A DNA stretch of 64,000 nt from Amoebophrya sp. A120 (GCA_905178155.1 CAJINV010000016.1:1269386-1333385); one strand, 5' to 3'. Numbered from the stretch's first letter, positions 1 through 63,839 are shown. The notes: generated from the sequence alone by a model not told the origin. Program-made: numbers and translations.

Positions 1-3000
1 TGTAGCTTAAAACCGTGGGGTCGGTTGTGTGGACTTTTTCGACGACAGAGTCTAACGAGTCTCTTTCCGGAATCAAATTTTTCAATTGCGGAAACACGTC
101 CCAGCTCGGTTTGGGAATGAAACGTTTGTTCTTGATCGGCTTCTCTGGTAATCCGGTGTCTTTTTGAGTTTGGTTCAATTTTCCATAGTAGTCGGAGGAC
201 TGCGAAGCTCCGGAATCCGAGTCGTAGATCCCGTGTTTCATGAAAAGCTGCTGCGCTGTATCACAAGAAAAAGTGTTAACGTTAGCGGTTTTCACAGAAT
301 GCAGTCACGCATGACAGTTTTTGCCCAATATGCTTGCTATGCATGACAAATTTGGGCACCTTTTGTGTTGCATTACTGCATCACAAATTCGAATTCCGTT
401 AACCTTAACACTTTTCCCTGTGATACGCTGATGTTTGGTCATCTCCTTCTCCCCGGAGCGCCTTCTCCTCGGCTTCCAACCGATGTCTTTCCTCCTCGAC
501 GTGATCCGCGTGTTTCTGCAACTCGGATTCGTAGAAGTGGGAGTTCTTCTCCGCTTCGAGGCGTTTCTGTTCCGCTGCTTTTGCTTCCTCTGCCGCTAGC
601 TTCGCTTCTTCCTCTCGTTTTGCGTCGGACATGAGGGAGGAGAGGAGTTTTTCCTGCTCTTGTCGGTACTCCTCGTCGGTATCGAGAGGTTTCTCGTCTT
701 CTGCCGCATGATCTTCCTCCGCTTCAATAGCTTCGCCCTGAGCTGCTGCTGCAGCAGCATCCGCAGGACCACCAGCTTCTGCTCCGTTCGCGTCGCCATC
801 GCCTGCAGCAGGATTAGCAGCTTCCGCGTCTGCCATCTGCTCCGCAGTGGCTGCAGGGTCGTGATCTTCGCCGAGATTCTCCTGCGAAAAGAATGACGAA
901 ATTGCTGACTTTTTCTCTTTTTTGTTCATTTCGGAGATCGTCTTCGCTTTCTCCACCACTGCTTCTGGATCGGATTCTGCGTTTTCCAATTGCTGAATTT
1001 CCCAAGCAGATTTTTCCACCTCCATTTCTTCGGCGTCTAACTTCACTTCTATGACCGCGTGATCGAGTAACTGCTTTGTCTCTTCCTCCGCATCTTGCTC
1101 TTTCGGCTCCTCGTCCTGCTGCGCAGCACCTTCGTCACCGTCGTCCGGAGAGGACTTAGCTTTCTTTGCAACAGGTTTAACATTAGCATCCCCGCCAACT
1201 ACTGCAGCCAGTTCTTCCGTCAACCTCGCCTCCAACTTGGAAACTTGCATCTTCCCTAATTCCTCGATTTTCATTTTCGATTTTTTTTCCTGCAGTCGCA
1301 GTTCCAAAATCGCGCTCTTGTGCTTCTCGATCCTTTCCTTCACAAGTCTTTTCCTCTCCTTTCTCCTCTCCTCAGAAGATTCCTTCGCTTCTTTCAACGT
1401 GGTTAATTGCCCCTGCATATCAAATGCAAAAGCGTCTGGGCGGTCTGGAAGATTGCCAGGTTTGTCATGCACATTTTGCATGACTCCTGATGTCTGTGAT
1501 GCATGCCCTAGCGTCACAGATTTTGTGAGGGCCTCCTGATGCCTATACCACATGACAAATGCTCTTTCCGTGTAGCAAAACTTGGATTCTCTTTGCTGCT
1601 CATGCAATACAGATTTTTTCAAAATCCAAAATCAGCATTACAAGTTGGATTCTTCCAGACCCAGACATTTTTACATTTGATACTGCACGTCATTCGTCTG
1701 TTCCTCACAGAACTGCTTAAAATCCTCCGCATCTACCCACGCTTCTATCGGGGCGGTCAACGTATCCGCAGCACCGGACTGTTGGAATTGCAGCGCCAAG
1801 CTGGTTATGCACGGTAAATTTCCTCCTGCGCAGGTACAAATGCGGTTTCTGCATGGCAAAACTTGGTTTCGATCCTAGTTTAGCATGACAAGTTTTGCGC
1901 TCCAAATTAGTGAAATTTGTGATGCATCTGGTACATTTACGGGAAATTTGTATTGCATAGTGGTGACGTCAATGGAGGATGGTGCTGTTTTTGATTTGTC
2001 CTCTCTAACAAGAACAACTCCTCGACCCTCGTATTTCGCAGTTCGGTACTTCTCCCGACTCTCTAACTATCAAATGCAAAAGTGTCTGGGTCTGGAAACT
2101 TGTAATGCTGCGTTGGGACTAGTGAATGCTCTGTAATGCCCAGCCAAGCATGAGAAATATCTGCGCTTCGTTGTGTTGCGTTTTTCGCATGACAAACTGC
2201 GTTTTTGCATAACAAACAAAAGGGCGTCTTCTTGGACACGCATCACAAACTTTTTGGTCATCCCAGACAAGCATGACAAATCGCGCATTCTTCCAGACCC
2301 AGACATTTTTACATTTGATACTAACCGCCACTTCGCGAAATCGGCGAGGAAGTCCGGTTTTTTGCTCTCACTTGCTCCAGGTCCAGCAGCCGCTGCAGAA
2401 CCTCCCGCGGTGCTCCCGTCTAGCATGAGAGATTTCGGCAGTTCGGATTTCACAACCTCTTCCACGGATACTTCCGGGACTTCGACCGGCAGATCCCCCG
2501 GATGGGGTTGTGATTCCACGTAGGACTCTATCGCGTTGTCCAAAGCCCTCAGTCCGACGAGCAGCACTTGGTCCTGGTCCGTTGGAGTCTCCATTTTGTC
2601 CGTCGCGGGTGTGACCTGGGTGGAAGGACGCTGCGACTCGGGTAAATCGCTTGGTTTATCTCCTGCTTCTTTCTCCAACAGGTCCCGGATTTCGCCCGCT
2701 TGGAAGTCGCCAGACTGCTCGCCCACTGTTCCATCAACTAGATTCACTTGTTGCGTGGTCGGTGGTCCACCTACTTTTTGCTGTATCACCACTGGCTCTG
2801 GGATGTAGACGACGCATTCCCTCGCCCGCTTGATGCTTTCCTCGTCTATCCTGTGTAAAGACGTCCCCACCCCAGAGTTGTCATGCTAAACAAAATGCGA
2901 CACACTTTGCCCCCCCATTGTAGCATGGCCGCAGATGGCTTGCCACGCAGGGCGGGTGGGTCAGGCGGACACCGAAATGCCATCACCATCATCTCCCGGC

Positions 3001-6000
3001 CACTATATCCCAACTCTGTTTTCGCCAACCAACCATACTGCGCCAACAACCATACTGTGCCAACTTGTGCCAACTTGCCAACAGAACAACGCCTCACTTT
3101 TATGCCAACAATTCCTACCACTGATTCTCGCAAACTTCCAACTCGCTACCACTATAACGGGAGTATACAGCCAGGCTCACAACAACAAGAAAAAGCTGCA
3201 GCCTGCGGCAAAACCCGTAATTCCTGTCTGGATGAATGCATTCACTGGAGACACTAAGCGACAAGCGCCAGCCTGAAGTGACGTTTAAACAACCAAGTTA
3301 AAGGTAAAAGATGCGAGATTGAATACTGATCTTCCTGATCGCTAGACTTGGCGTTCAAGAAGCATGCTTTCCACATGACCGGAAGCTCGAGGCACAGAAA
3401 TACAATTGGCAAGGCAGCACAAGTAGAACACGACTCTGCACCCAATCCGCAGGCAGCACAAGAAGAAAATGACTCTGCACCCGAACCGCTGGGCTCACGG
3501 AACCACCGGGTCTATTATCGGTTTCCTGCTTCGTGGGCACCCACTTGGATCGTTGTCAGGGGCTGCTAACTCGAAGGCGATCCAGTCAGGCGTCGTTCAC
3601 AGCCTCAGCGGCGCCCGACTAGCTACCCGTCCCGGGTACTTGCGTCTCCGCCGACAAGTACTGAAACTCGTGCAGCTCGGGAACCCGCGACAGCCGGAGA
3701 TCGGGGGAAGTGGTTTTGCCCGCGCGCCGCCCCTCGGCGGCTTCTCGCTACCCCGGCTTCGACACCCTCGCGCGAATACCGCCTGAGTCCTCGTATTCCG
3801 TATACTCTAGGCGAGTGCCATCCGAAGGTGAAACATGCGACTTCCACCGGCCCGTTCTAAGGTGGAGGCGATCCGGTGCGACCCGAGCCTTGCCCTTCAA
3901 CACATATGCACGTAGTCGCCAGCCTACTGCATCGCAGTAGCGCCTCTCCTACGGAGCTGCATTACACCTTGCCTCAAAGTTCTGTTATCGTGAGCTCTTG
4001 TCCGCGCGCCTAGATTGGAGGAAGATAATCTTAGAGAAAAACTACATAGCTCACTAGCTTAGCAGGGGGACCAGGCGAGACGGATGCAGTAAAGCCTGTT
4101 GCTCGCTGTCTTTTTATGAACTGCTTCTGTTCAAAAACCTTAGGAGAAATGAGCAACGCACCAGCCTAGCACGGGAACAAGGCGAGACGGATGGATCCAA
4201 TAATAACGCCGCTTTTGGTTCGTGTTGCGCGTTGTGGAATACCAAAACTTATCAGCTCACGGAAACCTACATGGACATGTTTGAGAGGCCTTTTACTGAG
4301 CGACTACTCAGACTGATTCGGGGGGGGCTGGCGGTCTGGACATCGGGCCAGGCGGGGAGGCTGGGGGAGGATCTGAGGACTGAGTGGGCGTCCTCCCTGG
4401 CTGAACGCACGTCCTCTCCTCTGGTGCGGCGACTGACACCACGATACTGCTCCGCCGCTCCGCAGCACGGCCCTCGTCGTCGACCATAGTATGATGGCGT
4501 ATTCTCATCTGAAAGAGGAGGCAGAACACGCATGGGATCTTGTCGCTAGATTTTTATATGTATGTGGGCACTTGCTCACGTGCTTGCATTATCAGGGACG
4601 GCGGGATTGCTCTTACGAGGGTGTAGTGTATCTGATTGGGCCTGGCGTGGCCTTGCCTCCTTCCTAGCGCATGGGAAGAGTTTGCATATCCTGCAGCATA
4701 GCGTCCTAAGAGCAATGCCGCAACGCAACGCCAAAAGATGCAGAACATAGCGAAAACCGCATGACAAGAGAGCACGTCGAGCTTCTACCATCTTGCGACC
4801 CTTACATCTCCCGCGTTCTGCCTGAGGGGGAATGGATAATTTAGCCCGTCTGCACGGAGCCTGTCGTCGTTGCTGCTTGCGAGGGCCGTGCCGCCACCCC
4901 GGTCGTGCTACTAACCCTTTCTGGACGAGAGGCCCGACGCGCAACGAGCGTCGGGAGAGTCAGAAGAAGTTTTCTTCTATCATTCAACGACGCGGGCGAG
5001 GCAACTTCGCCAGGAAGCGGAGACCTCGCATCTTTATCTCTCGTGGAAATGCCTCCGGAGCCGACCACTGCCCCTCTTCACGCCGCTTTGCTTGGCAGGG
5101 AACAAGGTGGTCGCATCTCGCACAACCTGAATGCCCAACTCGAGGCTCGTCGTGGTTCGCCCACGCGTGTAGGCGCGTCCATTGTGATTTCTTTTTGGCG
5201 ACGCGGGGGCTATGTTGCGTGCTCTACCGGCGCCGTGGCGTCGTAGTGAGTGTATGTCTTGTGCGCCAGCACGATTTCCCTCAGTGGGGCGGCGTCCAGC
5301 GGGCCTAGGATTTGAATTGGCGTATTGTCAGAATTTGTGGTAATCAGGAGTATTGATGCTGATACTTCAGCAGCAAGTGCTTCCAGCACTACATGATCTC
5401 CCCAACATTTGTCTTGGGAATGCTGGTGGATGTACTCTGCCCACTCGCTGTCGGAGCCGACGAACGGCTGATAGTGTGCGCGGCGGAGGATGAGGCTCTG
5501 AATGGCACGACGCCGGAAATGGTTGTAGTTTGCTTCTGACCCAGTAACCATTCTGCTAACCGCCCGACACATGCAGTTTCCATCGCCGATCACTTTGTCT
5601 AGGCGGAGGCCCCGCCCTGCGAGGCGTCCCCGTAGTCTGGCTTCTAGTCGCGCGTCTGCCTCAGCTTCCTTGAGGGAGATCTCCACAGCTTGATCCATCG
5701 CCGATCGCTTCCCAAGTGCTGCATCCTGGCTAGGAATGTTGGAACCGAAAACCCGCTGCGGGATCGTCTGCGGCCGACTTAGGTGCAGTGGACCGGGAGG
5801 TAGGCGCACTTGCTGGAACTCGTGGACAGGGGGGGGAGACGGGCCCCCATTAGTTGCTACCGCTGGGCTTGGGGGCTGCATCTGTGATGGTGCTTGCCGC
5901 TCCCTGGAGCGGCTTCTGACACGGGAGTCGGCGTTTCGCCAATCGGCGACTTTACGGGGGCCACCGGGCGCGGCCCTGTTTGGCCTCTTCCAGCAGAGCC

Positions 6001-9000
6001 TAGCGCGAACATCTTCGATTTCTGCCTCCGGGACTTGCGTGTGCCCGGGCTCCGCTGTGTACATGCGGTGGACCATTGGTGGGACGTGGGACCGGAGACC
6101 CGGAACCGCGGACGGGTCTTGTGTTGCTGAGGGTGGCGGCGCACGCATGCGCGAGGCCTCCACCATGTTGTGAAATACCTCCGCTGCCCGGTCGATGTTC
6201 TTCTGTACTTCGGGGTCTGGCATGACATCGTCCCGAGGCTGGCGAGCGGGGGCTTCGACAGGCCACGTTCCTTTGGGCGGGGGGGGAAGACCTATGAGGG
6301 TGAGGAACACCCTCAACACCTCAGCCGGCTTTTTCATGATCTTCGAGACCGATGGCAGCACCTCTCCCGCCTCCAGCGGAAAGTTGTCGCACATGGCCTT
6401 GCACTCCAGAGTTAGCACATGCTTTGCAAATTGCGAGATCAACACTTGCCGGCCTTGCGACTGAGATTGCCTTTTTTCTCCGGCCTCCGGGGGAGACGGC
6501 GGAGGGGATTCGCTCGTCGGCTCCTGTAACGCAGCCGCCGCGCGATCTATCGAGCCAAACTCCTCTTCGTCCACCGCCATGTCGTCCGCGCCCTGGCTTG
6601 GGTGCTGCGACTCTGCATACATCTGTTGCGAGAAACACACTGCAGCATCTAGCTTCTTGCTGCATAAGCCACATTTTAGGTGAGAGGAGCCGACTACACT
6701 CCTGGCAGCACGCGCTGCTTCCCTTCCGTCGCCCGAGCAGAGACTCCATACGATCCACTGCGACGTGGGGGTGAGGCCGCGAAGGACACGGCGGGCGTTT
6801 CCTAACTGGGAGGCGATTCTCCCTCGGCACGCTCCTGTTTTTGATTGAGCGGCCCGAGTTTGTAGCTGCCGCGCTACTTCCGCCCGCAGGCACTTGCGGG
6901 CGAACTCCCGCAACTGCCGTAGCGGAACGCGCAGGCTTACGTAGTTCGTCAGCGGCTCACTCGGCAATAATGTAGACTTCTGCAAGATGTCGGCCTCGCT
7001 GTGCGGGGATATCCCCGAGTGCCCAGGGCACCAGTGGAATATGAAGGTGATGTCAGGGCGCCGGTCCGCTAGCTTCGTGATGGCCGCCCGGATTTCTTGC
7101 CATGTTTCCTCCGTGCGGAGGGACTGAATGTTCTCCAGCGCCGGGCTGGCATCGCACTGGAAGATCACGAACCTCAGGGCCGGGTCCCAAATCGGCGACA
7201 AGTCTTCGTCTAAGCTGTCCGCCAGCATCAGAACTGCCGCTGCGTGGGCGCCTGACTCACCCCAAAACGTGGTCAGTGTGTGTCGCAACCTCATTGCTAG
7301 AGCAAACTTACCTTCTTCGTCGCAACCCCTCCTCATGACCACCGTCCCCATGCGCTGCTTGGGGCCGGGCCCAGGTTCTGCACCCGGATCGTCGCCACTA
7401 TCCGTTGCCACCCAGAGGAGAGCGGGCCCCAGGGACCTTTCTAGGCCTCGAAATTCGTCGCGGACCCGGGCCGCGACTTCTGGAGTGTTAGCTTTACTGA
7501 GCGCCAGGTCGTATTTTTGGAAGACTGCGGACGCAGGAAGAATGTGGACGTTGCTTGGCAGGGGGTCAGCTGGGATGAGGTTGTGCGAAATAGGGAGTGA
7601 CGCCCAACCCTCTCGCCTCATGTTGAAGACATCCTGCACCTTTGATGACCGGGCGAACTCCGCGTCGTCCAGGCCTATCGCCTGCACGCAGAGGGTAGTG
7701 CGCTCACCTAGCGCCGCTGTGGAGGGCACTACGGCCCCCGCGCTGATGAAGGTGCTGTACGTCGGAGCCGTGAAGGAGATGCGAAGCATGCGGCGCAACG
7801 CTGTCTCCGCGATGTCGTCCAGTTTGATCAACGCGCCCGGACACAGGAGCGACTTTGCGCTTGCCATGTACTGCAGCGCGTTGAATGCCTTCTCGTGGTA
7901 TTTGTTAATTGCTGCAAGCGGGGAGGCGGCTGCCGCATCTACGGCGTCCTCGTCTGTGGACGAGCATGAGAGGACTCGGCGGCGTTGGTCCTCGAAGTGT
8001 TGCTCCCAAGCCTCGGGGTTTACTGTAAGTGGCATCCCGAGGACTGTGATGTAGTTCGCCTTATTATACCTACGAAACAGCCCGGGAAGCCGGACCGACT
8101 TCGGCGCATCGGGGTCCAGTTCCACCTCGACTTCCGGTGGGCAGAGCGTCACGCCGTTGCTGAGCGTAACACGAATCCGCTTCAAAAACTGCTCCAGTTT
8201 TTTCTCGTCACCGGCGGCATGTTCTGGCGAGCGAAGAACGGCCATTCTCCAGTCCGAGACCGGGTAGGGGATTGACAAGAGCTTGTTGCCCCTGTCCTGC
8301 AATTTCTTCACCATCTCGCCCTCGGATTCTGCTGTTACGAAAATTGCGATGTCGTCGCAGTAGGCCGCGACGCACTCCCCCAGCGTGGAATACAGGCCGG
8401 CGGCGATGAGGTGCTTTTCCACACAAGCCCGGAAGAGGGCAGGCGATAACAATGTGCCCTGGCCCAACCCATCGCAGATAGGAAACGCCACCCCCATCAG
8501 CCCGTCCACGGCAATCCGCACCGTTCGCCCAGTCATCCAGTAGCACACTGCCTGCATTACTTGCCGGGATGCCCCCCGCTCTAACAGAACCTGAAGGACT
8601 TCGAGGAGGCTGCAATTTTCGAAGCCCCCCGTAACGTCCGCGACTATCACCGCGACGTATTTGGCGTTCCCTTGCATGGTGCGGATCAGGGCTCGCAGCA
8701 GGCCGACGGCGGGGGATAGCCCCGGAATGAATGCCGTATTGTCTCGGAAGACATTGAGAGACTGCTGTAGTTCGCCGTGCAGGATGCTTTCCGTGAATTT
8801 ATCTTCGACATTCAGCATCGAAATAGGCCGCCAATAGCGACCCAAAAACTTCGAAGCCCCTTTTTTGTTGTGCTTGTAAAGCCAAGACACTAGGTATTGT
8901 TTCGTCCAGGTAGGGGGGTCGTGGTAGTCGTTGAGGGCGCGGCATACTATATCGCACAGAAGGACACAGAGTTCTAGGGAGGCGAGCAGCAGCGCGGGCG

Positions 9001-12000
9001 GGACGCCGTTGCTGCCTGCGGCGGCGTGGGGGTTCAGCCGCTTCTGCGCTCGCATCGCCATGTCACGGGTAGGCTTCAACGGTCTAGATGGTGCCGCTGC
9101 GATTAATTTCGCCGCGGCCGCCGCCACGTCGTGCTCCTCTTCTGGGGTGCGCAACAGCCCGGCTGGCTTGTTTTCGCATAGCCGCACTCGGAATTGGTTC
9201 ATCGTCTCTTCTGTCGACGCGGTGAGGGATCCATCCCCACGTAGTAATGCGAGGTGAACGGAGGGAAGACGGGACTTGTTGTGTGGGGCTTTTGCCCGAT
9301 CAAGTGCTGTCGCCAAGGTGTCACCCGTGAAAGACGGCTCCTGCCCCGACGCAGCCGCGGATGCATCGGAGAGAACCTGGCCCAGCGTTTCCTGGTCTAT
9401 GCTGCTCCAGTGGAATACCTTTCGCCGGGTGAGCGATTGCGGGCAGGAGATGCTGTCTGGCCGGTCTTGCTTTTCTTGCCACCCGTCTGCGTTGGCGCCT
9501 AGGGCCGACCCATCCTGCCGCAGTTCGCAATCGATGCGAAGATGAGCGGCCCCGTTCATCGTAAGGTAGCGCGGTTCGACGAGCCGCGTGCATAGCACCG
9601 TTTCCGTGGTCCGAGGCTTGAGCAGGACGACGTCCGGCTGGGATTCCCCGGAGGGGAAAGTTACATCGTCCGCCTGCAGTGCGGAGGTGAGCCCTTCTGC
9701 TGTCGCGAATTGTGACAGTTGGCTTTGCAGCCAGTTCCCGCGGGGTGTGTCCGCTAGCACAGGGCCCGTGCTGGCGTTTAAGTCCCCGGCGATGCCTACC
9801 ACCTCCGCGGCATTGCTTCTCGCGAAGTTCATGAGGCTTTCGCGCTGCCCTCGGACTGGTAACTCTGGAACGCTGCATGAGGCTGGAGGAATGTAGCCGG
9901 CCAAGAGACGCCCCGCGATGTCCTCGTGGGCTACTAAGATGCAGGCCATGTTCGGTGCCCCTGGGATGGCCGCTGCGATTGCGTGGTCTGCAGGCCGGAG
10001 AGAGTGCGCCACTAACACCATGGCTCGGGGGGCGGACCAGATGAAGAACCGCCCAAGGAGTGTGCGGTAAATCAGGTCCCGGATTGGTTGCTGCAGTGCT
10101 TGAGTCGGCGTGTCGGATTCCGACACGACGACTACCAGCGCCCGCGACGCGTTGATCTCATGCACCAGCAACGGCCACTGTGAAGTGAGCGCGCGAGACA
10201 TGTTTATCGCCATGATCACGAAGCGCCGCCCTTTGGACCAGTCCTTGTCCGGCTTGGGTAGCCCGCCGGTGAAGTTCAGTCGGAGGCTGGCCAAGTGGTA
10301 CGCGGTCGATGTAGTTATTTCCCTTCTATTGTCTGTTTCCCCCCTGCGAACGCCCGGCGCCAGAACTCCTTGCGCCAGCTCCGCTAACTTCGCTAGCATC
10401 GCGCTCTGCAAGCGGCCGTGGCGCCCGATTCTGCACAATATCACATGTGCCAGCAGTGACGCTGGTTGTGCAGTTTCTTCTCCACAATGTGAACAGACGT
10501 AGAGCGCGTGCTGCTGAAATTCGATCTGCGACTGGGACTGGCTAACCGGAACGCGGAGGTACACCGGATAATCTGAGGAGGGGGCGGGGGAGTCGCTTTC
10601 GCCGGGTTTCGGGAACCATTTCGTCGGCCTTGGCTCGTCCGGTGGCGCCCGAGTGACTTCTAAAAAGGAGGCCAAGTACGGGTGGACCATCGGGTTGCTC
10701 GCCTGTGTGGCTTCTAGCCGGCCCGTTGCTGCTCGCACGCATTCCGCACAACGCCCATGCTGTTCGAGTTTGTTTACGGCAAGGTTCCACCGGCTGAGGC
10801 CCCGCGTTGGTGCGCAGATCATGTCCTCGACCTCTGAAGCGTCGGCCGCGGGCCGGTCGTGCATTGACCAGAAGAAAGTTCCCGGCGCCGCTGATTCGAT
10901 CTGCCGCTTCAGGCACCCGTGGCCCTTCGTCACCACTGCCTTGTCCTCGTCGTTGTCTACGCACCTGATTCCCGCGCTGATGAGCGCCTCTGGGTTTGGC
11001 GGACGGTCACACCAGTCCGAGGTTGTAAAGCCGCCGTAGTTGTGAATAGCCGCGGCCCCTTTGCGCCTCGGCATGCGGCGCGGATCGATTCTGATGCCGT
11101 GGTCTGTGCGGCGAAGAGCTACACCGTCGCTGGCTGCACTCGATAGCGGCCAGACGCCGGCGTAATCCGGGAAGCAGTCTGGGATTTCTGCGAGAGGACC
11201 CTCGCGGCAGGAGGTCGCCCGCCATACCGCTAGCGGAATTTCTGTTTCGTAGAACTTTTTACCCCCCGGTATGCACACCCCTCGGCGAAGCGCTTCTTCT
11301 GCAGCCTGTATCCTCTTAGACTCGCGCTCCCCCTCCTTCGCCGGGCGCGACATTTCCGCAAGGCAATGCGGGCCACATTCTAGTAGTAAGTTGTGCCGCT
11401 GTGCAGAACGGAATGCTGCTGCTGTGTGCTTCGGTACCATGCGCGCCACTTTTTGCAGTTTGGTCAGTGACCCCGCTGGAAGAAACGCCGGCGTTAGTAC
11501 GAACGCCTTGTTTGCTACGTATGTATCTGGGATCGCGTCCTCGTCTACCGCCGGAAGCGGGAGACCCGGCGGCCCGTCGCCCACGTTGGCATTTGGCGCC
11601 TCTGGGACGGGGGCGAGCTGCTCGAGCCGCTTGATTACAGCCGCGCGTATCGCTGCCATTGCCAACAGAGGCACGACCCACATCGTCGCTCTTTCTGCCC
11701 ACTTCCTGCGTGCTCTGTGCCCGACGAGCCCGCGTCTAGAGCTGTGCGGTGCACTGAAGGATTAGTGTCTTCGCTTTCTGTCTTGTGCCAGCCTATACCA
11801 ATAATAATTTAACTTCTATACATCAGTATATCACCAGAGTTGTCATGCAGATTTACCATGACAGGAACATTTGTGATGCGCAACCCCATGACAGGCATTT
11901 TCAATCGTGTTTGGGAACTTGTGATGCTGTAAACAGGATCAGAAGGTCGATTTGTGATGCGGCTTTCCTTGCTAACTTGCACTACCTTACGGACTGAAAC

Positions 12001-13400
12001 TTGTCATGCGTGACTCCTAAAACTCCTAGGTTTGTGTTGCAAAATCCCCATCCTGACTCTTGTGTGGGTACGTTTTTACTCAGGATATCGTCCATGTCTT
12101 CTTCATTGTCGAACGGAAACGCGTTTTCCACCTGGATCGGGGAAAAGACCGCGAGCCAGACCTGCTGGAGCAGCTTCAGCCGGAGCCGGATGTTCGCCGC
12201 GATCGTCATCTCGACGTTGTCGAATCGAGTGCGGAGGTGGAATTTTGTGGAGGAATCGGTGGAATTCAGAGCGGTCTGCTGCAGCACTTCGACGTAGAAA
12301 AATCCCTGATAAAGTAAAATGTGCATGAGCATAGCTACCATGTGTTCTCTGGTGCCCAGAGGCTCTTCAAACACAACAAAAACTGAACTTTTTCATCATG
12401 CCTGATAAACCCGAAATAAAATAATCTGTACCTCCTTCCCTTCAATTTTTTTCTGTTCCCATTTCCCGAACAGCTCCTCCCCGTTTATTTTTCCGCAGTT
12501 TTCAATTTCCTCCAGCAAGCACTTCTTCACGGATTCCTTCCCGTCATCGAGAAACAAATTCTCCTTCAGCATCCTCATCAAATCGATAAAAAATCGCTCC
12601 AACGGGTGCCGATAGCTCGCTTCCAACAGCGCAGAGTCCCAGAAGTACACCCTATCCTGTCGCATATCGTTTCTCGCCGACCAGGGTTTCGGGAGCTGGG
12701 AGTTGAGTACAGGTTTGAGAATTTGGAACAGGGTTTGATCCTATGAGAGTGCACAACTCCCCTTCCCCCTCATTTGTCATGCAAAGTATCTAATTTACGC
12801 CTTGCCTCTTGGCACTGTTAGCATGACAAGTTCTGGCAGCCCAAATAGCACAGCACTTCTGTTCAAATTTGTCATGCAAAACCTGTATTCTTGCTGACGC
12901 TTGTATTGCTGTTCATGCAATACAAATGAGGGGGAAGGGGAGTGGTGCCCTCTCATAGATCCTTTCTGGACTGTTTCAGGTTCAAGCCGAGGAACATGGC
13001 GTAAGCGTTGGGGTTCATGAAGCGAGAGACGGGTATATCACAAGAAAATGCGTAAACGTTCGCGGTTTTCACAGATTGCAGCGATGCATCACAAATTTAG
13101 CCTTACTAGCCTAGTATGCATGTTATGCATGACAAATTTGGGCGAGTTTTGTGATGCATTGCCGCATCACAAATTCCGTAAACGTTAATACTGTTTCTTG
13201 TGATAGGGTAATTCCGGGTCCTCATTCATGACCGTTTTGGAGGGGGACATGGCTTGGTGAGAACCCTCGAAGTACTTCTTGTTTGATGGTGTTTGCGACG
13301 CGTACAACGTGGAGTCCAGCTGGCTCCTCGTTGTGCAAGAGGAAGAAGTTGCCGGGCTGGTGCCGGTTAGGACACCGGTTGGGAGGACGAGACGGTCCAT
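1..13400 (-). CDS. Multi-exon host gene (3' end runs off the window): WW-like/CEP164-N-like domain followed by acidic coiled-coil protein
   Basis: Starts at ATG 13400 (MDRLVLP). The frame stays open to base 1 after removing introners 13036-13205, 12742-12957, 2847-12087, 2068-2320, 1806-1959, 1418-1682 and 259-425 (each with one TSD copy) plus a GT-AG intron at 12363-12431. The joined sequence YAMFLG...LPKPWSARNDMRQDRVYFWDS...SYRHPLE resembles the WW-containing N-terminus of CEP164-like proteins (by eye). Confidence 0.75.
259..425. mobile_element. Introner (family F2), 167 bp
   Basis: TIR tatcacaagaaaaagtgttaacgtt / aaccttaacacttttccctgtgata; TSD cgctg (254-258, 426-430); frame restored DQTSA|QQLF. 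Confidence 0.92.
1418..1682. mobile_element. Introner (family F1), 265 bp
   Basis: TIR tatcaaatgcaaaagcgtctggg / cccagacatttttacatttgata; TSD ctgca; frame restored DVQ|GQLT. Confidence 0.92.
1806..1959. mobile_element. Introner (singleton), 154 bp
   Basis: TIR tatgcacggtaaatttcc / ggaaatttgtattgcata; TSD ctggt/gtggt; frame restored. Confidence 0.8.
2068..2320. mobile_element. Introner (family F1), 253 bp
   Basis: TIR tatcaaatgcaaaagtgtctgggtctggaa; TSD ctaac; frame restored WRL|ESREK. Confidence 0.92.
2887..11833 (-). mobile_element. Non-LTR retrotransposon (I/Ingi-like architecture), ~8.95 kb, apparently full length
   Basis: 15-bp TSD ccagagttgtcatgc at 2872-2886 and 11834-11848; GC-rich; single 2157-aa ORF; 150-nt 5' UTR; ~2.3-kb 3' region; no poly(A) tail. 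Confidence 0.9.
5210..11683 (-). CDS. Retrotransposon polyprotein: Zn finger - APE endonuclease - reverse transcriptase - RNase H - OTU-like cysteine protease
   Basis: Zn finger CSHC...H...C. APE motifs VSESD, YIPP, AGDLNA, TF...QPDVV (~9540-10220). RT motifs WRPISML, QGTLLSPALF, YCDD (8351-8362). RNase H motifs ATDSG, GE, QCDA, WCPGHSG...EAD (~6970-7420). OTU motifs GDGNCMCRA, WGD, HYDA (~5230-5600). Confidence 0.93.
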   Translation of the reverse strand: MWVVPLLAMAAIRAAVIKRLEQLAPVPEAPNANVGDGPPGLPLPAVDEDAIPDTYVANKAFVLTPAFLPAGSLTKLQKVARMVPKHTAAAFRSAQRHNLLLECGPHCLAEMSRPAKEGERESKRIQAAEEALRRGVCIPGGKKFYETEIPLAVWRATSCREGPLAEIPDCFPDYAGVWPLSSAASDGVALRRTDHGIRIDPRRMPRRKGAAAIHNYGGFTTSDWCDRPPNPEALISAGIRCVDNDEDKAVVTKGHGCLKRQIESAAPGTFFWSMHDRPAADASEVEDMICAPTRGLSRWNLAVNKLEQHGRCAECVRAATGRLEATQASNPMVHPYLASFLEVTRAPPDEPRPTKWFPKPGESDSPAPSSDYPVYLRVPVSQSQSQIEFQQHALYVCSHCGEETAQPASLLAHVILCRIGRHGRLQSAMLAKLAELAQGVLAPGVRRGETDNRREITTSTAYHLASLRLNFTGGLPKPDKDWSKGRRFVIMAINMSRALTSQWPLLVHEINASRALVVVVSESDTPTQALQQPIRDLIYRTLLGRFFIWSAPRAMVLVAHSLRPADHAIAAAIPGAPNMACILVAHEDIAGRLLAGYIPPASCSVPELPVRGQRESLMNFARSNAAEVVGIAGDLNASTGPVLADTPRGNWLQSQLSQFATAEGLTSALQADDVTFPSGESQPDVVLLKPRTTETVLCTRLVEPRYLTMNGAAHLRIDCELRQDGSALGANADGWQEKQDRPDSISCPQSLTRRKVFHWSSIDQETLGQVLSDASAAASGQEPSFTGDTLATALDRAKAPHNKSRLPSVHLALLRGDGSLTASTEETMNQFRVRLCENKPAGLLRTPEEEHDVAAAAAKLIAAAPSRPLKPTRDMAMRAQKRLNPHAAAGSNGVPPALLLASLELCVLLCDIVCRALNDYHDPPTWTKQYLVSWLYKHNKKGASKFLGRYWRPISMLNVEDKFTESILHGELQQSLNVFRDNTAFIPGLSPAVGLLRALIRTMQGNAKYVAVIVADVTGGFENCSLLEVLQVLLERGASRQVMQAVCYWMTGRTVRIAVDGLMGVAFPICDGLGQGTLLSPALFRACVEKHLIAAGLYSTLGECVAAYCDDIAIFVTAESEGEMVKKLQDRGNKLLSIPYPVSDWRMAVLRSPEHAAGDEKKLEQFLKRIRVTLSNGVTLCPPEVEVELDPDAPKSVRLPGLFRRYNKANYITVLGMPLTVNPEAWEQHFEDQRRRVLSCSSTDEDAVDAAAASPLAAINKYHEKAFNALQYMASAKSLLCPGALIKLDDIAETALRRMLRISFTAPTYSTFISAGAVVPSTAALGERTTLCVQAIGLDDAEFARSSKVQDVFNMRREGWASLPISHNLIPADPLPSNVHILPASAVFQKYDLALSKANTPEVAARVRDEFRGLERSLGPALLWVATDSGDDPGAEPGPGPKQRMGTVVMRRGCDEEGKFALAMRLRHTLTTFWGESGAHAAAVLMLADSLDEDLSPIWDPALRFVIFQCDASPALENIQSLRTEETWQEIRAAITKLADRRPDITFIFHWCPGHSGISPHSEADILQKSTLLPSEPLTNYVSLRVPLRQLREFARKCLRAEVARQLQTRAAQSKTGACRGRIASQLGNARRVLRGLTPTSQWIVWSLCSGDGREAARAARSVVGSSHLKCGLCSKKLDAAVCFSQQMYAESQHPSQGADDMAVDEEEFGSIDRAAAALQEPTSESPPPSPPEAGEKRQSQSQGRQVLISQFAKHVLTLECKAMCDNFPLEAGEVLPSVSKIMKKPAEVLRVFLTLIGLPPPPKGTWPVEAPARQPRDDVMPDPEVQKNIDRAAEVFHNMVEASRMRAPPPSATQDPSAVPGLRSHVPPMVHRMYTAEPGHTQVPEAEIEDVRARLCWKRPNRAAPGGPRKVADWRNADSRVRSRSRERQAPSQMQPPSPAVATNGGPSPPPVHEFQQVRLPPGPLHLSRPQTIPQRVFGSNIPSQDAALGKRSAMDQAVEISLKEAEADARLEARLRGRLAGRGLRLDKVIGDGNCMCRAVSRMVTGSEANYNHFRRRAIQSLILRRAHYQPFVGSDSEWAEYIHQHSQDKCWGDHVVLEALAAEVSASILLITTNSDNTPIQILGPLDAAPLREIVLAHKTYTHYDATAPVEHAT
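12742..12957. mobile_element. Introner (family F4), 216 bp
   Basis: TIR tatgagagtgcacaactccccttccccctcatttgt; TSD gatcc; frame restored. Confidence 0.92.
13036..13205. mobile_element. Introner (family F2), 170 bp
   Basis: TIR tatcacaagaaa...aacgtt; TSD gggta; similar to 259-425; frame restored ELP|VSRF. Confidence 0.92.
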
Positions 13401-18482: not shown

Positions 18483-18492
18483 AGTCGAGAGG

Positions 18493-52891: not shown

Positions 52892-52970
52892 AGCCGCCTC
52901 TACTAAAACTAGTAAGCGTGGTCAAGTTATAGCTCATGAATAGCTCCAGCTGCACTCTTAAAGTTCTGGA
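52892..52970. repeat. Structured ~80-bp repeat, copy 1
   Basis: agccgcctctacta..tagta.gcgtggtcaag...tcatga...tccag-ctgcactcttaaagtt-ctgga; recurs at 54921, 55069 and 56385. Confidence 0.9.
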
Positions 52971-53114
52971 ACGCCGCCCCGCAGCCAAGCATTAGAAGAC
53001 GCAAAGCTGTTTCGACGGCTTGCGTTGAACGTGTCGGGAGCAGCGCAGCCAGGGAAATCGAAACACGCGAATAGCAAGTCCAACACCGGCGTGCCCGGGG
53101 TAACCCAGTTTTCG

Positions 53115-54889: not shown

Positions 54890-55000
54890 AGCCGCCTCTA
54901 CTAGAATTTAGTAGTTAGTTAGCCGCCTCTACTAGAACTTAGTATGCGTGGTCAAGAGTTAGCTCATGAATAGCTCCAGCTGCACTCTTAAAGTTCTGGA
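54890..55000. repeat. Structured repeat, copy 2 (54921-55000), preceded by a partial duplicate (54890-54913)
   Basis: Direct sequence identity with copy 1. Confidence 0.9.
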
Positions 55001-55068
55001 ACCCTATATACATGCGTATTTGCCCTGGGTTTTTGTATGACACGAGGGAGGGGCGCAGGTTCATCGTT

Positions 55069-55145
55069 AGCCGCCTCTACTATAGCAGTAAGCGTGGTCA
55101 AGTTTTAGCTCATGAAAGCTCCAGCTGTACTCTTAAAGTTCTGGA
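55069..55145. repeat. Structured repeat, copy 3
   Basis: Direct sequence identity with copy 1; the loop of the first hairpin varies. Confidence 0.9.
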
Positions 55146-56384
55146 CCGCCCCACCGCTCGCCACTCGCCGACAGCCGAGCCGAGCCGAGCCAAAACAAAC
55201 ACATAACATATAAACTTTTTCTAGTTAATATAAAAGATCTGTCTATTTCTTTGATTGCCCAGTCGTAAGCACCTGCTCTTCAATCTTTATCACTTTGTCT
55301 AGTCACAAGTAAGCTTTAGTCTTCCTTTGCTACCATCATTCTCTACGCCATTGCTGTTTCCAAAGAGCAAGTGAACCCACTACGGTGGAGCGGAAAGTTT
55401 TCGAACAATTCGGACGTTTGTGGACTTTCAGAACTTGTTTTTGTCGCACTAGTGTAGCGCCCGGCGGTGAAGAACTTGTTTTTTAGCTCCCCTGGTGCTC
55501 TAGGGACTTAACCTTACATAGCACGCCGACCGGTAGTACTACTACAAAAAGGGATGAATAACTTATGCCCGAAGAGGCTTAGCATAGTCCATCCCTCGCA
55601 CTGCTGTTGCGTCAGCAGATGCGGCGACAGGCGTGGCGTTCGCGGGGACCTCATGGCGAGGCTAGTTAGTTTTGCATGGCGGTCTGCGTGACTGCATCGC
55701 CGTGGCCGCCACCATAGGCCTGCTCGTGTAGTACATTCCGCGTAGCGCCCACCTTCGACGACCTACAAATATTCGTAGCGCGGAAGCCCACTGTGCGGAT
55801 CAGTGGCACTAGTAGCGCCTTAGACACCTCGGCCAAAAAAAAACAAGAAGGTGGTAAAATTTTTTTTTATATATAGCGTTACAGTACTGCAGTTCAAGTA
55901 GATCAAAAAGTTTTCGTACGAAAAACAAAAAGCAACTAGATCGTAAATTCCCATCGGCGAGTCCAGTGCGCAGCGGGCTGTCCCCACCAGTACACGAGTA
56001 TATTCCCACTAGGGAAAAGAGGCGTCCGTGTGGGCCGGGCAATTTGCACGTACATGGGAAGTTTGATGGAGGGGTTCAGGGTACATAAAAAAAAAAAACG
56101 AAAAGAAAAAGATCAAAATGATCCAGGCCGAGGTGTAGATGCATGCAAATGGGAACTTGTATTAGACGAATAGTAAAAAGTAAGTGCTTGATAACTTAAA
56201 CAGGGTTTAGGGTAATCAGCCGGTGCTCTGGTTGCGGCGCGTGAAGCTTTAGCATCGACCGGTATAAGACTTTCGGTGTGCTTGTCGGGTTTTGCTCAGT
56301 GGCCGAAATTCCCAGTCCCACCCAATAGGCATGCTATACGGCCCGGGGAATTTGTATCGCGGGCGGGGTACAAGCATCACTGTT

Positions 56385-56461
56385 AGCCGCCTCTACTAGA
56401 ATAGTACGCGTGGTCGAGCTCTAGTTCATGAAAAAGTCGGCTGCACTCTTAAAGTTCCGAC
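56385..56461. repeat. Structured repeat, copy 4 (divergent, compensatory stem)
   Basis: Stem tccag/ctgga is replaced by gtcgg/ccgac around the same 16-nt loop. Confidence 0.88.
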
Positions 56462-56997: not shown

Positions 56998-59900
56998 TCA
57001 CCTTCCCCACAAACTGTCCGCCGTTCCCCCTCGCCGTGTTGCCTTCGGAATCATGTTTTCCTTGTCATCTTCCGACGCACTGGTGTTCTCCTCGAACTGC
57101 TCATTTTCCGGAATGCTGCTGGTTTCCAGGCTCTGCAGTGTGCCACTCGGTCCCCGGAACGACATCCGCGGCGCGGGCCCGTCCTCGTATATGCGCTGCA
57201 AAAGTATCGCACTAGTACAAATCGCAATACAAATTGGCTCAGCATTACAAATTGAATTTGTAATGCTGTTTTACCTTGGGATGAAGATTTGCAAATTGTA
57301 ATCAATGCATGACTGCGATTACTACGAGTACGATACTTTTGCACAGGATATCGTACTTTTCAACGCCATTTTCGGTAAAACTCCCCGCGTCACCTATGGG
57401 AGTGTCAGGTTTGAAATCGACAAAGTTGAAATGGCTTGTGATGCAGAAAATCAATACCAGTTGGAAGCCCAATTTTCAAGCGGTGCATAACAAATTTCCC
57501 GAGCACCGGAATCCGATTTGTCATGCTGTTTGGGCACAGACGACTGCTTTTGTCTTGCTACTTTAGAAGCTCTATTTCACACCCTAAACAGGCTGACAGT
57601 CGGCCTTACTTGCCATCCCGGCAAGACAGGCACTTGCATTTTATGCATGACAAACTCTCTCAACTTTGTCGATTACGATTTCAAACCTGACGCTTCCATA
57701 TCACCCCCGGCCCCGCGGGAGGAGGAGTGGATATACTCTGCAAAAGTGGGTGTAGAATCGCATTTGGAGAAGCGTTTTTCGCATCTAGTACTTCTCGTAT
57801 ATCATCCTTTATTTTCGAGTTATGTTTTTTATGCCAGGTGGAGCAGCATTGCAAATGCAAGTTCCGCATTTTTACTACATTTCTTTGAATTCGATATATC
57901 ATTCGAGATGCGATGTACACTTCTAGAGGAAAAGTGCGATGCAACTTTTGCAAGAATGCATAAGAGACGACATCCGGCGAAGATTTGTCAAAAACGTCCG
58001 TCGCTGACCACATGTGGCCCGGCTTTTCGGTCAGTACCGCGGTCATGTTCTGGGAACTTTGCCGGAGGAACTGCGCTATGGATAGCAAAAGTAATATCTT
58101 CATACTCGTAGTAATCGAAATCGTAGGCATGCGCCATAGTCTGAAGGTTAAGGTGAGTCCGCATTTACAAATTTCATTTATCATGATCCTCCTGACGAAA
58201 TTCAAATTTGTCATGTGATTCTGGCACGAAGATACTTTTGCAACGCATATTCGCGCGCCATTGGGCGGTGGACTCCGCAAAGTGCTGCTTGGCTTGCGCG
58301 TTCATCTGGTGAGATGCGTTTTTTTATGTGATGTTCGAGGACCCATAGTTGTACTCCTGATAATTACATTTGTAGTCACGCAGGTCCGAGAACAAGGGAG
58401 CGCCGAGGCGACCAAGAAGAATAACTCGCGTTTCAGTTTGTTTCGCTCCTACACAAAGCAATTTCTTATGCAAAAAAACAAAAAAAATCCTACCTGCGAA
58501 TCGTCCGCGGTTGCGTGGAAGGTCTGCGCACGCTGAAACGTCGCCCGGATCCGCTTCGGTTGCCCCAGTTGTGGGCTCGAGTCCCGCTGTTCCGCCACCG
58601 ATTCCGGGTTGTGGTTTGCGAAGGTGCCTCGGTGGGAGGGCTGCGTATGACACCCTCAGAATGGAAATCCTCAAAGTGCAAATGATTTGTGATGCATGAA
58701 ATGCGACACCAAAAAGACTGTATTGCAGAGAACGCAATGGAGGCCGACTATTCTGCTTCTACGGGTTCAGAATTGGGCTGCTGATTAGCATGAGAGAAGG
58801 GCACCCCTTTGCCTAACTAGCATGACAGACACGCTTTGGGTGCCCGGGAAATTTGTCATGCGCCGACTAGAAGCGATGCTCCAACTGGAGTCGTTTTTTT
58901 GCATTACAAATTATTTTCACTGTGAGGATTTCTAAGCTGAGGCTTCCATACTGCGTGCCGGTCACGTAGCTGTGGTTGGCGAAGGTTCGTCGCTGGCCCC
59001 GCATTTCCCGGATCTTCATCTGGTTCTTCTGTTTTGCCGTGGACTGCTGGAGGTTTCCCTGCGGGCCTAACTGATCAAACGGATCCACGGCGGTCTCCGC
59101 GTTTTTCACCCGGCTCAGCATATCCGTGCTCCGCCGCAGAAACTCATCCGCGTTTGCAGGGAGCCGACCCCGAAATTCGGTGGAGGGTGTCGCGGAGTGG
59201 ATGTTGCTGCTCAGCGAAGCGGTTCCCCCACCAGCGACGAGCGGTCCGGAATGCGTCCCGGACGGGGTAATGCGTTTTGCTCCCGCGGCGGACCCGGCCG
59301 CAGCTGCTCCAGCAACAAAGGAGGTCTGTTTCAAATTATTGTCCATATCGACTGTGGAAGTGTCGCTCAAACCGGGGAGTGGTAGCCCAGCAGTCGTTCG
59401 CTCTCCCGATAAGAGCAGCTTGCCGAGCATTTTCTGCTCCACGAACTGCGACCGCAATTCTTGCCGCTTTTTCTGCTGATCCTCTTGGATGATCTTTTGT
59501 TCCTTCGCTTCTTGTTCTGTTCGCGGAGTGCTGGTCCACTCGATGTCGCCGTGAGAACTGTTGCTGCTGATACCTCGTCTAGTGTTGTTGTTCCCGTCCA
59601 GATATTCTGTGCAAAAATATCGCGTTCGTAGCAAAAGTAACTAGAATTAATACAGTGATGCCTCAGTACAAATTACCTTGTTCTTCCCAAGGTGAAATAT
59701 ATTATAATATATATTATCGTGATTATGACAAATGGCATGACAAATTCCATTTGTGGTCATGCTGAGCGAGAGCGAGTTGGAGTTTGCAATTGCGATTACT
59801 ACTGAGGCGATATTATTACTGTTTCAATTCATACCACAACCTCGTAAGTTTTCGTCTCGTAGTCACTGGAACCCGATTTCTCGCGTTTGTTCCCCAACCC

Positions 59901-60612
59901 GCCGAGCATCCATCTATCCTGTGCAAAAGTATCGTACTCGTATTGCAATCATGCATTACAAATCTATTTCCTAAGGTAAATCAGCATTACAAATTTTCTT
60001 TCTCATGCTGAGGAAATTTGTAATGCATTTATACGAGTACGATTCTTTTGCAATGCATACCACCTTTGCTGCTCCAGTAGATCCAAAGTTGGGCAGTTTG
60101 GAATCGGTTTCCCGGTTTTTTTATCCAGGACGGTTTGCCCGTCCGCCGCAATCCGATACTCCGTTAGGCCGGTAGCAAGGTAAACCAAGTCCGTGTTTTG
60201 GTCTACCTCCTCGGCGGGGGCTGCGCCTCCGCTAGTGGTCATGGCGCTACTGCTCGATCCGCTGCTGCTGTTTGCTCCACCTGTAGAAGTACCGGAGAAC
60301 ACGAGACTAGTTTTCGGGGGCGTCCTGATGCCGCTGGGTTTGGGCGACAAAATGCTGCCGTGCATGAAAAGCTTTTCTACTGATTGTTGCTGGAAGGAGG
60401 TAAGGGCCCCTGCTGAGTCTTTATTTCCGGCCTTACTGGAGGAAGAGGAAGACTTCTGATGCTTGGCGTTTGTCATTATCTGTTGCTGCTGCAGTATGGA
60501 AGCGTCCACCTCATACGAGGTTCCGGAGGAAGAAGATCTATTGGCTCCCTTCGAATTTGTGTTGGACGAGGCGTTGGACTTTTCTTGGTCCGGAGGCTGT
60601 TCGGTGACCTCA
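56998..60612 (-). CDS. Multi-exon low-complexity hypothetical protein (5' end unresolved)
   Basis: Frame continuous from ORF 60003-60509 through 58867-59634 to 56998-57201 across seven introners and at least one GT-AG intron. Confidence 0.65.
57190..57350. mobile_element. Introner (family F5), 161 bp
   Basis: TIR tatgcgctgcaaaagtatcg; TSD tcgta; frame restored. Confidence 0.9.
57395..57700. mobile_element. Introner (family F6), 306 bp
   Basis: TIR tatgggagtgtcaggtttgaaatcg; TSD tcacc; frame restored. Confidence 0.9.
57732..57962. mobile_element. Degenerate introner (F5-like), 231 bp
   Basis: Ends tatactctgcaaaagt / acttttgcaagaatgcata; TSD decayed (gtgga/agaga); frame restored. Confidence 0.68.
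58077..58249. mobile_element. Degenerate introner (F5-like), 173 bp
   Basis: Ends tatggatagcaaaagta / tacttttgcaacgcata; TSD tgcgc/ttcgc; frame restored. Confidence 0.75.
58646..58950. mobile_element. Introner (F6-related), 305 bp
   Basis: TIR tatg....ctcag....gaaatcctca.agtg.aaat.atttgt; TSD ctgcg; frame restored. Confidence 0.9.
59603..59833. mobile_element. Degenerate introner (F5-like), 231 bp
   Basis: TAT...ATA ends; TSD ccaga/ccaca; frame restored. Confidence 0.72.
59915..60059. mobile_element. Introner (family F5), 145 bp
   Basis: TIR core tgcaaaag.atcgtactcgtat; TSD ccatc/ccacc; frame restored QRW|MLGG. Confidence 0.88.
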
Positions 60613-60828
60613 TTTTAAATGATTATTTGTGTCGTGGTTTTTTATTGGCCGCGAAAGGACCAATCATAAAGCACATGCAGATCAACTGTTCTTGCTGCAA
60701 TTGCAGTGCAAATCAGAAGTGCTGAGTACTACGCTCGTGCAAGACTTCAACTTCTACAGGCAAAGCCAGGAGCAAGACAAAGACACGAGCAGCACGACTG
60801 CAGAAGCAGCTCATGGAAAAATTACATG

Positions 60829-61104
60829 TATGGATGTGTCAGAGTTGAAATCGACAAAGTTGAAATAATTTGTCATGCATAGTGGCGCATGACAAATTTC
60901 GGCGGTTCCTAAATCCAGTTTGTCATGCTGTTTAGGCAAACAAAAGTGATTTTCTCATGCTACTTTAGCAGCTCGAGCTGTAACCCCAAACAGGCTTACA
61001 ATCGGCCTCACGTGCCTGCTCTGCAACACACGTACCGCGGGCCATGCATTTTATGCATTACAAATTATTTCAACTTTGACGATTTCAAACCTGACGCTTC
61101 CATA
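60829..61104. mobile_element. Introner-type MITE (family F6, internally deleted), 276 bp, no evident coding context
   Basis: TIR tatggatgtgtcagagttgaaatcgacaaagttgaaataatttgt; TSD acatg. Confidence 0.88.
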
Positions 61105-62807: not shown

Positions 62808-63839
62808 CTATCTCGCCACCAGATTCATGAACGCGTCGTGGTTACTCGCCGGGGGCAGCTCCACCAGCGGGTCGTGCTTTGCGTAGTAGGTTTTCAAGAT
62901 GGCCGAAGATATGCATTGCAAAAGTTAGTATCAAGGCTTGCACTAATACTAATTGCAGCACAGCATGACGAATCTGAATCTCGCTGCTCAGCTCATGCAG
63001 CATTACAAGTGTCTCATTCTTCCTCCTGGAGATGAAACTTGTGATGCTATTCCGACTAGTACGATACTTTTGCAATGCATAGACCCGATAAACTCCCCAT
63101 TTTTCGACGGATCGGTCACAGTCAGCTCGTACCGATGCGGGATATCCTCCAGAGGGGGGCAAAACGTGCCGAAATCCATCTTACTTCCCCCGACGGGTTG
63201 TTGGAAGGGGGTGAGCAACTTCGTGTTCCGCAGGTTGTAATCTGCGTCCCACAATACCTCGTTACCCTCTGACAAATCTTCCAAATGCACGTGGATCATG
63301 TCCCGGCGGTCTTTCAGTTCGAGCAACGGGTGCTGTGCGCGTACCACGTTCCCCTTCGTGCTCGCACCGAACAACTTCTGTTGCATCTCGGTGATCCCTT
63401 GTTGTCCGGGAATATTTGTCGTCCTGGAGGACCCTTGTGACCCAGAAACCACGGGCATAGACCGCCGGAGCTTCCCGCAGGCGAAAAGGTCGGGGTTGTT
63501 GATGTCGGTGTGGGTGATTTGGTCTGATTGGTAATCCGTCATGATCTGCATGTCTGTCTCTTTCACGCCCAAACTGCTCGAAGGTTCCTTCGCCAATTGC
63601 CGCATGGAAAACAGAAAAATCGCCGTGAGGAAGGTCCGGAGTAAATCCGGCAGCCAGAGCTTGGGCAGCCCGGGGAGCTCGGGCAGCATCGGGGGAAAGG
63701 TCAGCGGGAAAGGCCAGGGAGGGCAGAGCTGTTGCGGTGTCGTGTTTTTGGAATTTATGTAGCTACAGGAAGTATAACGCATCGCAAAGTAGGTCGTGTG
63801 TAGCTTAAGTTTTTTCTGTGCGTGACCTAGGCTAAGCAT
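62808..63839 (-). CDS. PEBP/YbhB-like domain protein (start uncertain, possibly ATG 63689)
   Basis: Motif DFGTFCPPLEDIPHRYELTV. After introner removal the C-terminus reads FIGSAILKTYY...LVAR*. Confidence 0.6.
62910..63081. mobile_element. Introner (family F5), 172 bp
   Basis: TIR tatgcattgcaaaagt; TSD decayed (gaaga/gaccc); frame restored. Confidence 0.82.

Follow-up and report, generated by a model that had tools for sequence, protein, structure and literature searches.

A conserved, regularly spaced internal word in the introners of Amoebophrya sp. A120

Introners of the 64-kb window and of a wider sample

We analysed a 64-kb stretch of DNA from Amoebophrya sp. A120 (CAJINV010000016.1:1269386-1333385; hereafter the window), in which a fatty-acid desaturase gene, a non-long-terminal-repeat (non-LTR) retrotransposon and numerous short elements with TAT..ATA ends lie together. 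The elements are known introners of this organism, and the question pursued here is the ten-base word GCATNACAAA that recurs inside them. According to the available text of PMC7789003, A120 introners are ~240 nt long, are spliced non-canonically and have short direct repeats, and their inverted-repeat ends read TAT, 7 nt, AAA. The features of the window are, in its own coordinates:

259-425: introner of family F13, TAT..ATA ends, perfect 5-bp duplication; second copy at 13036-13205
1418-1682: introner F0; others at 2068-2320, 21138-21399, 42270-42524 and 48786-49047
2847-12087: F1 introner split by the retrotransposon, with the host duplication TCGTC on both sides
2872-2886, plus strand: left 15-bp target duplication of the retrotransposon, holding a variant of the word (end-proximal; 2877-2886 on the minus strand; distance to the introner end 31 nt)
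2887-11833, minus strand: non-LTR retrotransposon (8.9 kb), its 3' end abutting the 5' edge of the word
5210-11761, minus strand: open reading frame (ORF) of 2183 aa, with predicted APE-type endonuclease, reverse transcriptase and OTU-like tail
11834-11848, plus strand: right copy of the 15-bp target duplication, with the second copy of the word
12742-12957: introner F6; second copy at 47719-47934
25116-25268: introner F2; others at 41024-41173, 46632-46791, 48441-48590, 57190-57350 and 59915-60059, and weaker copies at 39763-39912, 58077-58249 and 62910-63081
27842-28146: introner F5; others at 28336-28641, 47333-47642, 57395-57700, 58646-58950 and 60829-61104
29134-29344: introner F3; second copy at 41996-42207
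32350-32459: introner F12, the shortest family, with a pair of words on the same strand, at 32 and 64; second copy at 48623-48731
39360-39638: introner F1, all words on one strand; second copy at 43142-43423
46632-49047, minus strand: fatty-acid desaturase gene with six introners, each skipped with exactly 5 extra bases
47424-47465: example of a convergent word pair, 32 bp apart
59603-59832: introner-like insert, decayed, with a single word; further such pieces at 1826-1960, 29391-29557 and 57732-57961 (all boundaries drawn by eye)

Elements were detected blind to the word, by TAT..ATA ends (the TAT being required by the detector), paired arms and a 5-bp duplication. This gave 31 candidates in the window, of which a doubtful one (31816-32054) was dropped and 30 were kept. 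A wider sample consisted of 117 loci of the JACKZZ01 record set, retrieved by a pattern from the end of one family; together with the window it amounts to 891 kb, 98 kb of which are duplicate. In total 580 distinct elements were detected, as against one in 373 kb of shuffled DNA, and these fell into 39 clusters, 17 of them with several members. The duplication was perfect at 5 bp in 447 of the 580 and at 6 bp in none, with other lengths near zero, and the insertion sites showed no target consensus. A cluster-weighted logo of the ends had A at 0.70-0.79 in positions 11-14, following TAT and seven variable nucleotides. With terminal inverted repeats (TIRs), a target-site duplication (TSD) of fixed length, no coding capacity and many dispersed copies, the elements have the features of miniature inverted-repeat transposable elements (MITEs), and thousands of contigs of the DNA run X1 pile onto them.

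Removal without GT-AG ends was seen in the contigs of two RNA-like runs, X4 and X6, whose RNA status is putative and which also skip a canonical intron. Among 15 joints listed of 60, these contigs skip at least seven window elements by exactly the element length plus 5; the joints in the desaturase gene are of 165, 315, 221, 155, 114 and 267 nt, and an exon that lies between two of its elements matches a named Amoebophrya sp. A120 protein at 100% identity. An eighth window element (43142-43423) is skipped in run X3, by contig pieces. The raw-read RNA runs X10-X12 placed 104, 10 and 9 reads on the window, all partial and giving no evidence of splicing, and run X9 covers element pieces only. Three spliced elements with mismatched duplications (46627-46793, 48435-48591 and 62904-63082; three cases only) bracket the cut, and a single register fits them, with the intron starting 1 nt before TAT and ending 4 nt after ATA in transcript orientation. 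At 49014-49047, ~96 raw reads of run X10 match the F0 end only and join it to a different word-carrying interior and a different flank; they come from an expressed, unspliced copy elsewhere. Rfam gave no matches in the window. A motif of ~60 bp beginning AGCCGCCTCTACTA, which is not an introner, recurs near 52893, 54920, 55069 and 56385 (window 54900-56460), with strain-like variants in RNA-like contigs.

One word in unrelated families

The first-pass annotation of this DNA had pointed to one ten-base word, present in both orientations in otherwise unrelated introner families and scarce in exons and in the retroelement, and had read it as a shared cis code. The counts bear out the first part of this claim. 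The word occurs 62 times in the window, where dinucleotide shuffles predict 0.78 +/- 0.93, as GCATGACAAA (31), GCATCACAAA (15), GCATTACAAA (14) and GCATAACAAA (2), and refinement gives the motif GCA(T/A)NACA(A/G)A, in which position 5 varies almost freely. The 30 blindly detected introners (6,491 bases) hold 57 of the 62 words; the addition of six hand-curated pieces raises this to 61. In the wider sample without duplicates the exact word occurs at 4.68/kb where the DNA is element-like, at 0.062/kb in ORFs and at 0.128/kb in the remaining non-ORF DNA, so that it is ~35-75 times denser in elements than outside them and its scarcity in exons holds. Scarcity in the retroelement stands in so far as its body contains none, but the retroelement is itself inserted on one word.

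Nearly every element carries the word: 572 of the 580 have a site at a position weight matrix (PWM) score of at least 10 and 432 have an exact word, most elements having 3-6. Sites at this threshold number 17.6/kb in elements as against 0.1/kb in shuffled DNA, and GCATGAC appears in 14 of 15 family consensuses. Once the words were masked, the interiors of the family consensuses aligned about as chance would have it (median score 21, null median 20, null maximum 31); only 3 of 105 family pairs exceeded the null maximum, which leaves a few related pairs and the rest unalignable. A second shared motif was sought after masking, and at most CTAAACAG was found, in 4 of the 15 families. The idea that the word is an exact copy of the end motif was dropped, the match being only partial. 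Outside recognisable elements, in the non-coding DNA of loci L047-L163 and the window, the word is ~ten-fold enriched with the 31-33 bp spacing kept; these words may be an older introner layer or reflect host use.

The words are regularly spaced. Among the consensuses of 15 families, 23 of the 71 word pairs lying within 70 bp are 31-33 bp apart (null mean 4.5, maximum 12 of 5000), and 13 of the 15 families have such a pair (null mean 4.0, maximum 10). Further peaks lie at 15-18 and 46-51 bp, with almost nothing at 19-29, and the intervals are stable among copies (31 in 120 of 130 F1 copies; 32 in 40 of 42 F4 copies). It had been claimed that the words often form inverted pairs 20-40 bp apart. 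The pair at 47424 and 47456 is as described and a second has its words at 60887 and 60919 (not 60920), but direct pairs are commoner at 31-33 bp (neighbouring exact words: 8 direct, 5 convergent, 0 divergent). In the third example the word at 12868 is partnered, ~47 bp away, by the variant GCATGACAAG near 12821. The spacing extends to the ends: in 12 of the 15 families, those with an outward-facing word within 56 nt of the end, this word starts 30-33, 40-43 or 51-54 nt from it. Distances were entered per family by hand, with F2, F10 and F11 excluded as having no outward word near the end. The resulting phase (R=0.88 near a period of 10-10.5) was reached by 1 of 20000 nulls. At the usual 10.5 bp per turn, 31.5, 42 and 52.5 bp correspond to three, four and five helical turns.

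The word is also conserved. In all nine of the largest families the core of the word diverges less (2.3-9.3%) than the rest of the interior (9.8-30.4%), with the arms at 8-20%. Measured on held-out columns in nearest-neighbour pairs, core divergence rises from 2.5% in the youngest pairs to 6.5% in older ones, whereas the other interior rises from 5.6% to 28.1%. The two copies of the 5-bp duplication provide a clock for time since insertion: in 517 elements (three with shared flanks and those with more than two duplication mismatches having been dropped) 124 of 2585 sites differ between them, 4.8% in all and 2.4% for each copy. The cores of strong sites are off consensus at 232 of 8280 sites (2.8%). 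Per-copy loss of the word therefore runs at about the post-insertion rate and losses are not passed on to new lineages, from which we infer selection at the copying step. The families are not end-to-end alignable descendants in which the word decays neutrally, and the word is not equally frequent outside introners; the reading as a shared cis code is supported on both counts.

A probable site in double-stranded DNA

Three functions had been offered for the word, namely a transposase-binding repeat, an RNA-binding-protein site that licenses splicing and a builder of branched RNA structure. We called the gene strand for 313 of the 580 elements. With respect to it, words are 364 sense and 322 antisense, and the cores are off consensus at 133 of 3211 sense sites (4.1%) and 124 of 2889 antisense sites (4.3%; p=0.80). 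Even at a PWM score of at least 7, a sense word is missing from 24 of 310 genic elements, 21 of which have to be removed if the frame is to be kept; an antisense word is missing from 40 of the genic elements. Inverted pairs showed no covariation (convergent 0.679, expected 0.686; divergent 0.572, expected 0.567). Family F1 has its six words all on one strand and occurs in both orientations with respect to the gene, 36 against 23 (p=0.12), so the suggestion that the symmetry of the word lets an element be spliced either way is not needed. The absence of strand bias and of covariation, together with the one-stranded F1 in both orientations, favours a site in double-stranded DNA that is selected at transposition. 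The transposase-type option is thereby favoured, the RNA-protein site is weakened and branched RNA fails as a general rule.

The word is a conserved, regularly spaced motif of nearly all A120 introners, and we consider it probable that it serves as a double-stranded DNA binding site for a protein needed to copy them, not as a splicing signal. We infer the binding protein, a transposase or its helper, since no transposase was found. Several copies of such a protein would bind words on one face of the helix, and the bound multimer would align both TAT ends for a strand transfer of the integrase type, staggered by 5 bp. New lineages would be founded solely by copies whose words are intact, which would explain why the word is constant across families yet decays about neutrally after insertion. 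Splicing would rely on the paired ends instead of the word.

Alternatively, a host DNA-binding or chromatin protein might occupy the word in inserted copies and assist co-transcriptional removal, making the word a strand-independent splicing aid. We regard this as unlikely, although it fits the strand independence and the helical phasing, as well as the failure to find U1 small nuclear RNA (snRNA) in A120 that the available text of PMC7789003 reports. The lower divergence of the core in the youngest pairs also speaks for it, as do the sites in non-coding DNA outside elements (143 PWM sites as against 13 in shuffled DNA), where 6 of 21 pairs lie at 31-33 bp and none below 31 (duplicates removed). 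Old remnants could, however, account for these outside sites, and decayed one-site inserts persist. Per-copy decay of the core (2.8%) is moreover not below the per-copy clock (2.4%), and it is the same in genic and unassigned elements (4.2% and 4.3%).

Less probable still is a site for an RNA-binding protein or snRNA by which non-canonical splicing would be licensed. In its favour, splicing proceeds without GT-AG ends and the word is present in nearly all elements; but the balance of strands, the equal decay on both and the elements devoid of a sense word, or of an antisense one, stand against it, and it would require two unrelated RNA motifs of equal effect. There is very little to recommend the word as a functionless relic of shared ancestry or an internal duplication of the end motif. 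The end consensus TAT-N7-AAA does resemble TAT plus the word (best at offset 4, with 4.4 of 9 letters) and a few family pairs are related, yet in each family tested the core exceeds its neighbours 3-9 fold in conservation, with position 5 free, the interiors are otherwise unalignable and the spacing is fixed, by which this explanation is largely refuted. The least credible proposal, that inverted words build a branched RNA (or single-stranded DNA) structure, draws on predicted RNA folds (up to eight copies per family), in which words pair with words in eight of nine families (0.27-0.65) with interior folding z of -1.5 to -3.5 in seven of the eight, but it meets a pairing of 0.01 and a z of -0.10 in F1, inverted pairs are lacking in F1 and F12 from the outset, variable positions do not covary, direct pairs dominate the 31-33 bp class and a stem needs no fixed sequence. 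The end arms, by comparison, pair in all nine families (0.79-0.89) in the same folds.

Several points weigh against a DNA site read by a copying protein. No transposase or integrase was matched in 284 open frames of at least 180 codons from ~0.8 Mb, and Farhat et al. (PMC7789003) report none in A120 in the available text, which also argues against general transposase mobilisation of A120 introners. Of the ~115-Mb genome the sample takes in ~0.8 Mb, with a bias towards loci carrying an F1 end and an over-representation of F1, and gene strand was called from reading frames, not from RNA. Orientation was skewed in F4 (17:6; p=0.035 uncorrected, one of 14 tests), and the word-word pairing in predicted folds is found in most families. 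Families F2, F10 and F11 lack an outward word near the end, and a helical periodicity of element length was sought and rejected (R 0.17 at 10.5). Even in the youngest pairs core divergence is two-fold lower than that of the other interior; because of this deficit, and because the 2.8% of the core lies within the clock range of 2.4-4.8%, weak constraint after insertion is possible, and 4-6 redundant sites could mask it.

The search for the mobiliser also covered long TIR elements, and those found were nested insertions or chance pairs. Scans of viral contigs for word pairs returned 10 and 35 loci and one for the F0 end pattern, nearly all matching the pair only; the two richest loci were tandem repeats. 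According to the available text of Gozashti et al. 2025 (PMC12130899), A120 family 38 is a TIR DNA family with a 5-bp TSD, TA/TA termini and integrase-like homology, a description that makes it a candidate lineage for the mobiliser; the word is absent from the supplement files of that paper that were searched (files 13-14 lay outside the search).

A retrotransposon at the word, and known systems

The 8.9-kb non-LTR retrotransposon in the F1 introner has duplicated the word, its 15-bp duplication ending on the end-proximal copy. Two truncated copies (L055 and L119), lying in further F1 copies, have this 3' junction too, with flanks and 5' junctions of their own, and a similar retrotransposon 3' end lies at the same word edge in an F0 (L116) and an F7 (L090) element, its kinship to the first being judged by eye. 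All five insertions of this group, three in F1 and one each in F0 and F7, thus share junction and orientation at the word. They were found among 13 split elements listed; a word edge makes up 0.009 of positions. Within the group the 3' end is fixed and the 5' junctions differ, copies are truncated at the 5' end, and the duplication measures 15, 17 or 9 bp or is almost absent. The remaining eight inserts belong to other types and are found on words or no more than ~15 bp away, with no fixed junction. Recurrent types were noted: a poly(A)-tailed insert present in both F0 and F1, a few bases upstream of the end-proximal word (L074 10759-11965; L097 399-895); an (ATG)n-tailed insert four times, at least three of them inside introner-like sequence (L055 6184-6998; L066 near 6496; L091 7233-7620; L124 near 992); and a GC-rich insert of ~850 bp with GAGAGG repeats in three different introner families (L049 505-1608; L060 10001-11148; L075 8799-9843).

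The retrotransposon ORF matches the reverse transcriptase model RVT_1 in Pfam (1.8e-13). The region upstream of it was missed as an endonuclease by Pfam and Protein Data Bank (PDB) sequence searches alone, and a first structural model was poor (predicted local distance difference test, pLDDT, 42.8); a further model of the endonuclease (pLDDT 64.6; domain at window 9512-10249) matches the endonucleases of APE1, TRAS1 and LINE-1 with E values of ~1e-6. Judged by this predicted endonuclease, the nested element is an APE-type non-LTR retrotransposon. Four relatives were found, all eukaryote proteins. At the tail of the ORF (window 5210-5600) lies an OTU-like cysteine protease domain (Pfam OTU, 3.8e-9), and one relative of the ORF, P0001, carries in its annotation a fused DNA primase small subunit domain, which may be an artefact of the gene model caused by nested insertion. 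Of the offsets tested, a single one, removal of the 9.2-kb element together with 5 nt, leaves the same frame open to its left and right (300 + 711 nt), and for this reason the split introner at 2847-12087 is probably still spliced out, as far as its reading frame indicates. The endonuclease of the group would read the word or the protein complex upon it, and the insert would be removed with the introner.

More tentatively, and with somewhat more doubt than belief, we propose that one protein reads a phased array of a single word (pairs at three turns; ends at three, four or five) and thereby mobilises dozens of unrelated families of intron-forming MITEs; that such families could arise by the arrangement of words between any paired TAT..ATA ends; and that a retrotransposon lineage has evolved to cut at the word, so that its 9-kb insert hides in a spliced element. 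For the introners of Amoebophrya the word sets the question of movement apart from that of splicing. It suggests a mobiliser acting on DNA, for which it supplies a defined bait and a spacing rule; and with the interior removed as a likely splice code, the paired ends are left. The nested retrotransposon suggests a safe-haven strategy that exploits splicing, and also that some A120 introners classed as retro-derived may be MITE introners with nested inserts.

The introners were already known; the spacing rule of the word, its pattern of decay and its targeting by a retrotransposon did not turn up in the literature searched. In the literature available in part, no shared internal word, spacing or word-targeted retrotransposon insertion was found for Amoebophrya, although relevant material may stand in Roy et al. 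2023, in the figures supplementing PMC7789003 or in files 13-14 of PMC12130899. A search for the word itself returned no introner paper by title among the matches listed. The window elements resemble the published A120 introners in their ends, direct repeats and non-canonical splicing, but the available text of PMC7789003 describes terminal motifs only, with no internal word or spacing.

By analogy, and as far as the available text of each source goes, the word may be compared with the subterminal repeats of CACTA/En-Spm elements bound by TNPA (PMC2613891) and the Emigrant MITE motifs bound by Lemi1 (PMC1636448), which are likewise short motifs, direct and inverted, acting as cis determinants of transposition. 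Such motifs vary from family to family and are concentrated towards the ends, whereas here one word is common to more than 30 clusters, fills the element and follows a 31-33 bp rule; nor do the introners belong to CACTA/En-Spm, having TAT termini and a 5-bp TSD in place of CACTA termini and a 3-bp TSD. IS3EU/GingerRoot elements have similar TA..TA termini, and their integrase-like chemistry would suit a 5-bp stagger, but their TSD is usually 6 bp according to the available text of PMC10045372, a length at which none of our 580 elements, 447 of them perfect at 5 bp, has a duplication. For the nested insertion, the available text of PMC6719617 offers a possible analogue in the Xenopus Tx1 non-LTR element, which targets Tx1D DNA transposons as a safe haven and so likewise enters a DNA transposon; in A120, however, the target is a word common to unrelated families, and the host element is an intron with which the insert would be spliced out.

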